This document shows positions 4,754-6,995 of a stretch of 26,211 nucleotides of DNA, piece after piece. Under the pieces are notes generated by a model. That model was given only the letters and a program-made list of their open reading frames with translations, did no database searches and had not been told where the DNA came from. This stretch comes from Methanomicrobiales archaeon (GTDB lineage Archaea; Halobacteriota; Methanomicrobia; Methanomicrobiales; Methanospirillaceae). The stretch covers positions 1-26,211 of the forward strand of contig JBAXTR010000001.1 of assembly GCA_037130095.1 (NCBI GenBank), given 5' to 3'. The position numbers were made by a program, and so were the translations under genes. The number at the start of each line of letters is the position of its first letter. Position 1 is the stretch's first letter.

Positions 4754-5703
4754 AAGCAGCCCTTCTTGCCGTTGGAAAAGCACGGTTGACCGGGCAGGAT
4801 GCAACCCTGTACCTTTCAAGTTCATCTGCAGGTCCGGGAGCCGGGGGAGAGGGTTCGGTCTTCTTTTCCACCGGTGGTATGAGGGTGCGGTTCGCACGTT
4901 CAGAGACAAGCCCCATCGAAATCACCCATGAAGGCGAAGGGGTCGCAACACTCCGCTATGGTGATATTGAATTATCCGGACGGTTTGATCCAGTGGGTCT
5001 TCATTGCCCGGAACAGGCCTATATCACCGTCAGCAGCGGCTGTATTTTCAACTGCCTTTACTGTAATGTGCCACGCCTGCCCAAGCGGAGAAAATCAATC
5101 GGGGAGATCCATGCGATGGTCGAGCGGATTAAAGACTGTATTGTTGCAATCTCCATCACCAGTGGCGTATATTCTGACATTTCCGAGGAAGAAGATTATG
5201 TTTGCAGGGTTGTCCGTGACCTGGCACAGTTCGGTCTCCCGATCGGGGTTTCAATATACCCCACGGAAGAAACACCAGGCCGCCTGCACGGGCTAGGGGT
5301 AAAAGAAGTGAAGTTCAATATTGAATGCGCTACTCCGGGGTTGTTTGCCTCACTATGCCCGGGCCATGACTGTGATCTCATCATACGGGTCCTCCAAAAG
5401 TCAGTAGCGTTGTTCGGACGCGGTCACGTGTTTTCAAATGTAATTCTTGGTCTTGGAGAGACGGATGAAGAGATGAATGCATGTATCAGGGATCTGGCAA
5501 CAATGGGTGTGATCCCGGTTATCCGGCCATTGAACCCGATTGCAGGGTTTTCCGGATCAAGCCGGCCTTCCGCTGAACGGTTGCTCCGGGTTGCCGGTTA
5601 TCATGAAAAAGCGTTGCAGGAAGAAGGGCTGGACCCCGGAAATGCCCTGACCATGTGTGTCCGGTGCAGGGGTTGTGACCTGGTCCCTGGGGAGCCGCTA
5701 TGA
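4735..5703 (+). CDS. Radical SAM protein (biotin-synthase-related type) with extra Cys motifs
   Basis: CxxxCxxC (CIFNCLYC, C103/107/110, nt 5041-5064), upstream HCP (C91) and C-terminal CxxCxxC (CVRCRGC, C308/311/314); 322 aa. Confidence 0.9.
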   Translation: MHGQELKAALLAVGKARLTGQDATLYLSSSSAGPGAGGEGSVFFSTGGMRVRFARSETSPIEITHEGEGVATLRYGDIELSGRFDPVGLHCPEQAYITVSSGCIFNCLYCNVPRLPKRRKSIGEIHAMVERIKDCIVAISITSGVYSDISEEEDYVCRVVRDLAQFGLPIGVSIYPTEETPGRLHGLGVKEVKFNIECATPGLFASLCPGHDCDLIIRVLQKSVALFGRGHVFSNVILGLGETDEEMNACIRDLATMGVIPVIRPLNPIAGFSGSSRPSAERLLRVAGYHEKALQEEGLDPGNALTMCVRCRGCDLVPGEPL

Positions 5704-6995
5704 AGGGTGAAGATGCAGTAACGAAGGCCCTGCTTGCTGCAGCTGACCTGTTTTACGGTGTGCCGGGCTTTCCCGTCAGCGGAGTGCTTGAAAAAACAGG
5801 TGCGGAACCTGTCATTAATGAAAAAGTGGCTGTAGAATACGCCCTTGGTGACTCACTTTCAGGCAGGAGAGCGGCAGTAATCCTTAAAAATGTCGGGTTA
5901 AATGCCTGTGCAGACCCGTTTGTCGAGGCGACTACCCAGGGGCTGCTCGCAGGTGTGGTCATTGTCGCCGGTGACGACCCGGAAGCCGAGGGGTCGCAGA
6001 ATGCACAGGACTCGAGATACTACGGGGAACTCGCCGAGGTACCGGTTATTGAGCCCGGCACGCACAACATTTTTGAAGCCGTTGAAGAGGCATTCCGGGT
6101 GTCGGAATCATTTTCAAGGATTGCAATCCTCCGCCTTACACCGGACCTCCTCAATGCAGAAGTACCTCCCGGGAATGCAGAAAGAAAGAATAACAGGGGT
6201 ACGATCGCTCCGTTACATCTCACCATGAAGGGAAGGGTTGACAGGGCGAAAAATATGCTCGGGCCAATGGGTGAATGGGCGAAAACTTCACCCCTGAACC
6301 GGATACATGGAACAATTGCCCTCGTTGGTGCTGCTGTATCCGGTGATAAACAGCCCCTTCCGGACCCAGTATCCCGTATCAGTACTGTGTACCCTCTAAC
6401 TGGAGGGACATGCAGATTTAATGAGGTAAAAGAACTTGGGAGACCGTTTGTCAGCGAACACCAGGGAATGGTCCCCCCTGCGTATGTGGACCCCGAGCGA
6501 AGGGAAGACCGCGGCTTCTACCGGTCATTCTGCAAGGACTGTCCCTTTATCCTTGCAATAAAGGTCCTTGATGAACGGGGCATTTCTGTTACCTGTGATG
6601 CGGGCTGCTGCGTTCTCTGTATGAACCCACCGTATAAAACCAGTCTGGTAAGCTATGGAATGGGGTCATCCATCGGGGTGGCTGCGAAAAGTACGGGTAT
6701 CGCGCTCACCGGAGACTATGCACTGCTCCATTCCGGGCTCCCCGCACTGATCGATGTGTACGAGAAAAAAACGCCATTATTGTGCGTCATTATGAAAAAT
6801 AAGTGCATGGGGATGACCGGCGGACAGCAGGCATACGATATTATGCCCTACATTACCTGGGCTGACCCCGTAATCTGCCGGGCTGATGATGAAGCCCGTC
6901 TAAGGGAAATTCTTGTTCCCCCGAAATCGCCTGTAGTTGTAGTGATTGAAGGGGCTTGTCCGATAGGGAGACACCATGAAACCGTGGAATGTTGA
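5700..6995 (+). CDS. Thiamine-pyrophosphate-dependent enzyme, indolepyruvate oxidoreductase alpha (IorA)-like, shortened
   Basis: GVPGFP, INEKVAVEYALG, KNVGLNACAD, FCKDCP, CDAGC, GMGSSIG and GDYALLHSG...KNKCMGMTGGQ are IorA/OFOR-type motifs; 431 aa; no 2x[4Fe-4S] ferredoxin domain; ATGA overlap with the radical SAM gene. Confidence 0.85.
   Translation: MKGEDAVTKALLAAADLFYGVPGFPVSGVLEKTGAEPVINEKVAVEYALGDSLSGRRAAVILKNVGLNACADPFVEATTQGLLAGVVIVAGDDPEAEGSQNAQDSRYYGELAEVPVIEPGTHNIFEAVEEAFRVSESFSRIAILRLTPDLLNAEVPPGNAERKNNRGTIAPLHLTMKGRVDRAKNMLGPMGEWAKTSPLNRIHGTIALVGAAVSGDKQPLPDPVSRISTVYPLTGGTCRFNEVKELGRPFVSEHQGMVPPAYVDPERREDRGFYRSFCKDCPFILAIKVLDERGISVTCDAGCCVLCMNPPYKTSLVSYGMGSSIGVAAKSTGIALTGDYALLHSGLPALIDVYEKKTPLLCVIMKNKCMGMTGGQQAYDIMPYITWADPVICRADDEARLREILVPPKSPVVVVIEGACPIGRHHETVEC

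Follow-up and report, generated by a model that had tools for sequence, protein, structure and literature searches.

An IorA-like thiamine diphosphate protein encoded with the aks genes, a candidate 2-oxosuberate decarboxylase of coenzyme B synthesis in methane-metabolizing archaea

The DNA considered here, hereafter the window, is a stretch of 26,211 nt from a Methanomicrobiales archaeon (contig JBAXTR010000001.1 of assembly GCA_037130095.1). At positions 5700-6995, its forward strand carries the gene of a 431-residue protein (P0001) resembling IorA, the alpha subunit of indolepyruvate:ferredoxin oxidoreductase, and containing the two domains that bind thiamine diphosphate (TPP); it is called the TPP protein below. 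Its gene lies between those of methanogenesis marker protein 11 (marker 11) and a protein of the radical S-adenosylmethionine (SAM) type on one side, and a set of aks genes on the other. Coenzyme B is required wherever organisms form methane, or oxidize it anaerobically, through methyl-coenzyme M reductase, and we know of no enzyme identified for the steps that come after 2-oxosuberate in its synthesis. A literature search found no paper assigning this gene or naming a 2-oxosuberate decarboxylase, and nothing relevant on marker 11. Judging from its sequence and that of its neighbors, we favor the TPP protein, with modest confidence, as a candidate 2-oxosuberate decarboxylase of this pathway. 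The labels G, C, L, f, and g used below designate the genomes, contigs, loci, families, and genera of our sample. The gene and its parts are the following:

5700..6995, + strand: IorA-like thiamine diphosphate protein, 431 residues (P0001), from open reading frame, Pfam, NCBIfam, alignment, and AlphaFold2 analyses
5700..6149, + strand: Pyr (pyrimidine-binding) domain, residues ~1-150, with E41 in the NEK motif (nt 5820-5822) and R106 of SQNxQDSR
6150..6494, + strand: eroded remnant of domain II, residues ~151-265, from alignment, length comparison, and a predicted local distance difference test score (pLDDT) of 62-88
6495..6992, + strand: PP (diphosphate-binding) domain, residues ~266-431, with the Mg-diphosphate motif G338-D339...N367 (nt 6711-6800)
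6531..6959, + strand: span of the cysteines C278 (6531-6533), C281 (6540-6542), C303 (6606-6608), and C420 (6957-6959), predicted ligands of a proximal [4Fe-4S] cluster

The Pyr domain holds the NEKVAVE motif (residues 40-46), the glutamate of which, E41, is invariant in the family, and the SQNxQDSR arginine R106, kept in 58 of the 62 family members. The PP domain displays GDYALLHSG (residues 338-346) followed by N367. The protein length and both motifs, on which the original prediction was built, are therefore all present. Pfam analysis reports TPP_enzyme_C as the sole match, a partial one (36 bits), and the NCBIfam model IOR_alpha (TIGR03336) scores 151.3 bits against a cut-off of 650.9, aligning at model positions 7-162 and 359-468 only. 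Alignment with the 589-residue IorA of the same genome reveals that the C-terminal domain with two [4Fe-4S] clusters and most of domain II are gone, and domain I (Pyr) and domain VI (PP) are retained in alignments with this IorA and relatives. The Methanomicrobiales forms comprise 375-435 residues, with a domain II of variable length, and those of other orders ~500 residues, with domain II at full length. No CxxCxxCxxxC motif occurs in the 431 residues. The coenzyme A (CoA)-binding domain III (PF01558, IorB family) is absent from the TPP protein, and none of the six hits of this family in the genome falls on the contig of the window, in line with the earlier statement that both a ferredoxin module and a nearby iorB are missing. 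The gene is tightly packed: its start ATG overlaps the stop of the radical SAM gene (ATGA, 5700-5703), and the aksA-like gene starts at 6976, inside the final 20 bases of the TPP gene and before its stop. A low-depth DNA contig of run X1 omits 207 bases (in frame, 69 codons) at window 6766-6974, toward the 3' end of the TPP gene. The joint has only 22 letters on its shorter side, so that the gap could reflect strain variation or an error of assembly.

The AlphaFold2 model of the TPP protein, computed from a 48-row alignment, has a mean pLDDT of 93.7 and a predicted template modeling score of 0.94. VIA-align analysis of this model reports that residues 1-259 resemble the alpha subunits of 2-oxoacid:ferredoxin oxidoreductases (OFORs; 6N2N, 5B47, 9BT4, 8YS5, and 5C4I, Z 21-23), and residues 268-425 the beta subunit of StOFOR, an OFOR from Sulfolobus tokodaii (5B48_B, Z 14.0). 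Over the whole chain, it returns single-chain thiamine enzymes of the decarboxylase/synthase type (Z 24-27, root mean square deviation (rmsd) 3.1-4.3 Å over 307-327 residues). Foldseek against the PDB lists only such single-chain enzymes, at rmsd values of 14.4-18.0 Å, and the oxidoreductase subunits emerged by VIA-align. At the sequence level, phmmer finds no match to the TPP protein among PDB sequences at E ≤ 0.01, and the family profile returns marginal, generic thiamine-enzyme matches only.

The TPP protein retains four cysteines: CKDC comprises C278 and C281, DAGC ends at C303, and GACP holds C420. These four positions are cysteines in 62, 60, 62, and 60 of the 62 family members, respectively, and in 37-38 of 38 canonical IorA sequences. 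They align with four cysteines of the IorA from the same genome, two of which fall, in HMMER alignments, on C46 and on the cysteine near residue 197 of StOFOR beta. In this oxidoreductase family, the Cys12-Cys15 CXGC loop ligates the proximal cluster (PMC5020499). CKDC, DAGC, and GACP therefore very probably make up, by alignment, a complete four-cysteine proximal [4Fe-4S] site, and the protein very probably still holds one cluster. The cysteines had been correctly listed at the outset but taken for leftovers, a view that does not fit a full ligand set conserved in 60-62 of 62 members; the enzyme is thus not fully stripped of its redox parts. By contrast, all four cysteines are missing in a member from Halorutilales and in 10 of the 11 bacterial sister representatives, and some are lost in Bipolaricaulota. 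Since 10 of 11 bacterial sisters do without them, the wider clade appears to run thiamine chemistry without redox parts.

The genome also encodes an ordinary IorA. On G000:C185, an iorA gene of 589 codons with two ferredoxin motifs scores 832 bits, above the cut-off, and is directly followed by iorB. The gene of the window is thus an additional and divergent paralogue rather than a piece of the housekeeping enzyme. An ordinary IorA whose partner was lost to assembly gaps was considered and rejected, because a complete iorAB pair exists elsewhere and the short form is kept in closed genomes. A phylogeny tells the same: in a FastTree analysis of 166 sequences, the clade containing the window protein is split from canonical IorA and from other bacterial forms devoid of the ferredoxin domain (SH-like support 99), and an IQ-TREE analysis of 66 sequences gives the same split (Shimodaira-Hasegawa approximate likelihood ratio test, SH-aLRT, 100). 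Both the separate iorAB locus and the tree had been called for as checks on the original prediction, and both came out in its favor. The clade comprises three groups. The first one (SH-aLRT 89) is the family of methane archaea, with Methanomicrobiales on a long branch, f10, Methermicoccaceae, Methanotrichaceae, Methanocellaceae, Methanosarcinaceae, GoM-Arc1, and anaerobic methanotrophic archaea of group 2 (ANME-2). The second one consists of bacterial proteins encoded in sugar-nucleotide and glycosyltransferase clusters, and the third, small one of the Halorutilales protein and Bipolaricaulota proteins. As compared with IorA, the family of methane archaea shows a signature near the active site, Y21V, T24Y/F (the conserved threonine of YPxTP), and S340Y/F, and in addition H283F/Y. 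The window protein combines its position in the tree with V21, Y/F24, Y/F340, and the four cysteines. If the motif spacing is taken as a guide, position 24 would correspond to Thr257 of StOFOR2 and R106 to Arg344, both binders of the substrate carboxylate (PMC5020499).

Regarding relatives from other settings, the loci L080:8001-10630, L081:8001-9521, and L084:5811-8509 encode bacterial clade members mostly devoid of cluster cysteines, next to NTP_transferase, glycosyltransferase, SIS, GHMP-kinase, or inositol-phosphate synthase genes. L082:1458-5857 (G230, f31) encodes a 496-residue, four-cysteine IorA-like protein without ferredoxin domain on the canonical side of the tree; its gene adjoins an iron alcohol dehydrogenase gene, with an aminotransferase gene nearby, an arrangement of the Ehrlich type that would be in keeping with the formation of an aldehyde on such a scaffold. 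In L163:2291-8749, from a Bacillota metagenome-assembled genome, a full-length IorA gene with ferredoxin domain is immediately preceded by LeuCD-like and LeuA-like genes, which again pairs genes of 2-oxoacid elongation with an enzyme of the IorA type.

The genes flanking the TPP gene in the window are the following:

2917..3876, + strand: divergent marker 11 paralogue with a TiaS TCKD domain (203 bits, below the cut-off of 255.8)
3860..4753, + strand: methanogenesis marker protein 11 (338.5 bits, above the cut-off)
4735..5703, + strand: radical SAM protein weakly like LipS2/LipA/BioB-type enzymes, its stop overlapping the TPP start
6976..8109, + strand: AksA-like homocitrate-type synthase (Pfam, NCBIfam)
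8079..9789, + strand: AksD-like (8079-9326) and AksE-like (9316-9789) homoaconitase subunits (Pfam, NCBIfam)
9786..10586, + strand: DUF7714, a distant XcbA relative (family matches)
10586..11548, + strand: AksF-like homoisocitrate dehydrogenase (family matches)

This arrangement is conserved. About 20 kb around the gene were fetched from 20 Methanomicrobiales genomes (six families) and from 20 genomes of seven other families, and the window proteins were mapped onto them. In all 40 loci, which represent 13 families of the phylum, the TPP gene adjoins aks genes together with DUF7714 and/or marker 11. The order FTR, (marker 11 paralogue), marker 11, radical SAM, TPP, aksA, aksD, aksE, DUF7714, aksF is found in 18 of the 20 Methanomicrobiales loci; L050 and L051 keep the gene order with no FTR match, and L053, also with no FTR match, has its marker 11 paralogue and DUF7714 rearranged. 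In 20 of 20 loci outside Methanomicrobiales, the TPP gene neighbors a divergent aksA with aksD-aksE-aksF-DUF7714 after it, and/or comes immediately downstream of marker 11. A wider profile scan of contigs (best 80 of at least 599 matches) adds 50 loci labeled archaeal, 45 of which exhibit the aks/marker 11 adjacency, including those of Methanocella, Methanosarcina, Methanolobus, Methanohalophilus, Methanomethylovorans, Methanotrichaceae, and ANME-2. Four of the five exceptions sit on contigs under 5 kb, and the fifth, L089 (GoM-Arc1, 16,427-base contig), has the family signature with no aks or marker 11 match. Two loci labeled Nanoarchaeia and Bathyarchaeia (L087 and L088) have a layout (TPP, divergent aksA, aksD...) and a similarity near the f10 type, and these bins are probably mislabeled or mixed. 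No iorB-like gene was found with PF01558 on the contig of the window, the only locus probed for it. Metatranscriptome contigs from two runs of one freshwater lake sample cover parts of the operon, among them 5430-5765, spanning the radical SAM/TPP junction, and 5912-6038; they are weak evidence of transcription, as DNA can occur in RNA libraries.

A second, independent pointer to the substrate comes from an archaeon of Halorutilales, an order of haloarchaea (PMC10134839). In Halorutilales archaeon Cl-col2-1, ten genes follow one another on one strand (L072:8803-18728, - strand) in the order bioB-bioW-bioU-like-bioF-bioD-aksA-aksD-aksE-aksF-TPP:

bioB: 383 bits, cut-off 225
bioW: 241 bits, cut-off 226
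bioU-like: 342 bits, below the cut-off of 600
bioF: 438 bits, cut-off 426
bioD: 139 bits, cut-off 83
aksA-, aksD-, aksE-, and aksF-like genes, then TPP: identified by similarity to the window proteins

An IS605-type transposase gene comes after the operon, which contains no aldehyde dehydrogenase gene. A second genome of the same genus has the same aks-TPP order on a contig that stops short of the bio genes. The TPP member of Cl-col2-1 is the one devoid of all four cysteines; mcrA was not found in its genome, and DUF7714 was not found in the two sampled Halorutilales genomes. BioW uses and activates pimelate, a C7 diacid, and three rounds of 2-oxoacid elongation lead to 2-oxosuberate, which yields a C7 skeleton upon loss of C1; oxidation after this decarboxylation would produce such a diacid. 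The group of White reportedly suggested that methanogens derive both coenzyme B and biotin from 2-oxosuberate; our literature search found nothing relevant on a link between 2-oxosuberate and biotin. The coupling of aks genes with this type of thiamine enzyme in two pathways suggests a common need, namely the decarboxylation of 2-oxosuberate, so that this operon points to 2-oxosuberate as substrate and to a C7 product. It may further reflect an archaeal route to pimelate, not yet described, in which a 2-oxoacid is elongated and then decarboxylated to supply biotin synthesis.

Taken together, a protein that is not an ordinary IorA, its link with aksADEF across archaeal classes, and a sister protein encoded in a biotin-aks operon make a decarboxylation consuming 2-oxosuberate the best reading of the TPP gene. 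The substrate, the product, and the non-oxidative course are what we infer from these data. AksA, AksDE, and AksF, encoded just downstream, would yield 2-oxosuberate, which the TPP enzyme would decarboxylate on thiamine diphosphate. As the protein has no CoA site or domain III, the hydroxyalkyl-thiamine intermediate would be protonated and released as 7-oxoheptanoate, which the XcbA-like DUF7714 protein and other neighbors would turn into 7-mercaptoheptanoate for coenzyme B. XcbA is a [2Fe-2S] protein (-372 mV) that reduces a thioaldehyde to the coenzyme M thiol in Xanthobacter (PMC9457059), and its relative in the aks operon is therefore a natural candidate for the next, thiol-forming step. 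We take the retained cluster to be structural, or to act in a later step specific to coenzyme B, and not in the decarboxylation itself. The idea of a repurposed oxidoreductase subunit that consumes the aks product hence stands, since the protein is tied to aks genes across classes and has a biotin-aks sister, but the purely non-oxidative course originally attached to it is put in question by the retained cluster site.

The phyletic pattern was examined in 301 genomes of the phylum with a TPP family profile at E ≤ 1e-95. The profile matches f1-f4, f6, f7, f10, f14, f24, f30, f34, plus f19 and, weakly, f31; the short forms of f5, g6, g8, g14, and g18 lie below the threshold and show as split matches. 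DUF7714 is found in f1-f7, f10, f14, f24, f30, f34, plus f28. The mcrA gene occurs in those families, and also in f12, f15, f16, f20, f28, f29, f32, and part of f8; the source genome of the window, which is 76% complete, gave no mcrA match. Together, the TPP protein and DUF7714 seem to form a single module of the Methanomicrobiales/Methanosarcinales/Methanocellales side. The marker 11 protein of Methanocaldococcus jannaschii scores above the cut-off, and DUF7714 was not found in this organism. A search for marker 11 homologues returned no class I sequences, its matches being saturated by close relatives.

Several observations weigh against a role of the TPP protein in decarboxylating 2-oxosuberate for coenzyme B. 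In every mcrA-linked lineage, strict conservation holds for the four cluster cysteines, of which a plain decarboxylase would need none. Searches for the TPP family gave no member in f12, f15, f16, f20, f28, f29, and f32, all of which bear mcrA, nor in the mcrA-positive members of g21 (f8); full-length IorA only was found in f12, f15, f28, f29, and part of f8, and no IorA-type match of any kind in f16, f20, and f32. Organisms bearing mcrA also need coenzyme B. The TPP protein is therefore not a universal enzyme, and other users of coenzyme B must differ at this step. No class I methanogen appears among the named matches (best 80 of at least 599). Two of the 46 Methanomicrobiales genomes (G189 and G294) showed canonical IorA only. 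These two (g18; 99% and 97% complete, short stretches of both unsearched) have marker 11 and DUF7714, and two congeners carry the short gene. Marker 11, the commonest neighbor, is also present in genera where mcrA was not found (above the cut-off in g48 and g52 of f8, and also in f16 and f17). Of the mcrA-bearing families, f12, f20, and f29 gave no match to it, and f15 gave one in only 1 of 38 genomes; it is therefore no simple marker of coenzyme B. Lastly, the Halorutilales protein belongs to a sister subclade and is not a strict orthologue.

The conserved cysteines give rise to an alternative that we hold for rather improbable, although it comes next in line: a 2-oxosuberate decarboxylation, oxidative or by one electron, that depends on the single [4Fe-4S] cluster. 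Electrons or sulfur would be exchanged with DUF7714, the radical SAM protein, or a free ferredoxin, and no free aldehyde would be released; either the C7 unit would leave in acyl or thioacyl form, or thiol formation would be paid for by the electrons. Oxidoreductases with a single cluster that work with an external ferredoxin do exist (PMC5020499), XcbA is itself redox-active (PMC9457059), and the TPP family and DUF7714 occur in an almost identical set of families. The cysteines are kept where mcrA is linked and lost in Halorutilales, the two sampled genomes of which are also without DUF7714, and in the bacterial sisters; yet aerobic life is an equally simple cause of the loss in Halorutilales, and the pattern stems from only two or three independent events. 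Furthermore, no CoA-binding domain III is encoded nearby, and the labeling work of White reportedly indicated free 7-oxoheptanoate as an intermediate, which such a course would bypass. More doubtful still is a special form of this idea, in which the TPP enzyme and the XcbA-like protein would constitute one thiol-forming module and hand on a TPP-bound C7 intermediate or electrons without any pool of free aldehyde. If it were true, the module would put the oxidoreductase scaffold to a new use, the formation of carbon-sulfur bonds, and a cluster-less version of the scaffold would supply pimelate for biotin in some haloarchaea. The predicted complex of the TPP protein with DUF7714 scores 0.00, which counts for neither the non-oxidative nor the cluster-dependent course.

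Other substrates fit the neighborhood less well. The TPP protein might act on another 2-oxoacid of thiol-cofactor metabolism, such as the sulfopyruvate of coenzyme M synthesis, instead of or besides 2-oxosuberate, and ComDE (TIGR03845) is indeed found in only 9 of 21 Methanomicrobiales relatives, with G002, G072, and G177 (closed or 98-99% complete) showing no ComDE match yet encoding the IorA-like protein. Nonetheless, we consider this improbable: the conserved neighbors are aks and not coenzyme M genes, the IorA-like protein also occurs in genomes bearing ComDE (e.g., G088, G120, G135, and G199), and the biotin-aks operon points to a C8 dicarboxylic substrate. TIGR03845 returned no match in the source genome, either in the window or elsewhere. 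More broadly, ComDE was not found in G002, G072, G177, G303, G304, G310, and others, which are closed or 94-99% complete. The least probable reading, to which we give very little credence, is an alpha subunit of an indolepyruvate/arylpyruvate:ferredoxin oxidoreductase that works with a distant IorB and a free ferredoxin. IOR_alpha is the best named family, iorB exists in the genome, and the cluster site is intact; against this, that iorB directly adjoins the full-length iorA and not the window gene, the score lies far below the family cut-off, domain II is eroded, the protein falls in a separate clade with a changed active-site signature, and its linkage with aks/marker 11 is constant in the absence of any iorB on the contig.

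With 2-oxosuberate decarboxylation as the preferred function, the gene is a concrete and clonable candidate for the first step after 2-oxosuberate in Methanomicrobiales, Methanosarcinales, Methanocellales, and ANME-2, and its neighbors may carry out the steps that are left in coenzyme B synthesis. The pathway seems not to be universal, which predicts a second solution in ANME-1-like, Syntrophoarchaeum-like, and probably class I lineages. Elsewhere in the window lie the genes of an alpha-acetolactate decarboxylase homologue (469-1158, - strand), a HAMP-SpoIIE phosphatase (15217-16905, + strand), and a tRNA-intron endonuclease with duplicated domains (20061-21209, + strand).

Among known systems, IorA is the closest named family, with which the TPP protein shares the Pyr and PP domains, the NEK glutamate, the SQNxQDSR arginine, the GD...N motif, and the four proximal-cluster cysteines. 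It differs by the missing ferredoxin domain, the eroded domain II, and neighbors that are aks and marker 11 instead of an adjacent iorB, and it does not give the full-length match above 650.9 bits that characterizes IorA. Within the OFOR superfamily at large, it has a Pyr domain with the glutamate and arginine and a PP domain with GD...N and four cysteines of a predicted cluster; it lacks the CoA-binding domain III, both in cis and as a partner encoded on the contig. ComDE (TIGR03845/TIGR03846) offers a functional parallel, as its thiamine-dependent, non-oxidative decarboxylation in the synthesis of a thiol cofactor is the chemistry proposed here for the TPP protein, and enzymes of the pyruvate decarboxylase/acetolactate synthase type share the single-chain Pyr...PP layout. 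However, the window protein has no typical middle domain, and cluster cysteines are foreign to that group. The cysteine-free cousins belong to the same 100%-supported clade and have V21 and the layout without ferredoxin domain, but they form sister subclades that serve other pathways (biotin, or glycan/nucleotide-sugar genes). A further parallel is provided by StOFOR1 and StOFOR2 (5B46-5B48), which have no internal ferredoxin domain, hold the proximal [4Fe-4S] cluster only, by a CXGC loop and further cysteines, and use an external ferredoxin (PMC5020499), so that the earlier premise that OFORs need a ferredoxin domain does not hold. Their fold matches the TPP protein in both the alpha (Z 23.1) and beta (Z 14.0) subunits. 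They differ in being made of two subunits, with CoA and ferredoxin bound by a large domain III, while the window protein unites Pyr and PP in one chain. In StOFOR1, oxidative decarboxylation to the acyl-CoA depends on the cluster and CoA, whereas the non-oxidative reaction that yields the aldehyde needs neither (PMC5020499). The TPP protein is best explained as a reduced member of the IorA branch of the OFORs, for which a single-cluster oxidoreductase acting as a decarboxylase is the closest model, and an oxidoreductase scaffold appears to have been recruited here for decarboxylase-type chemistry.

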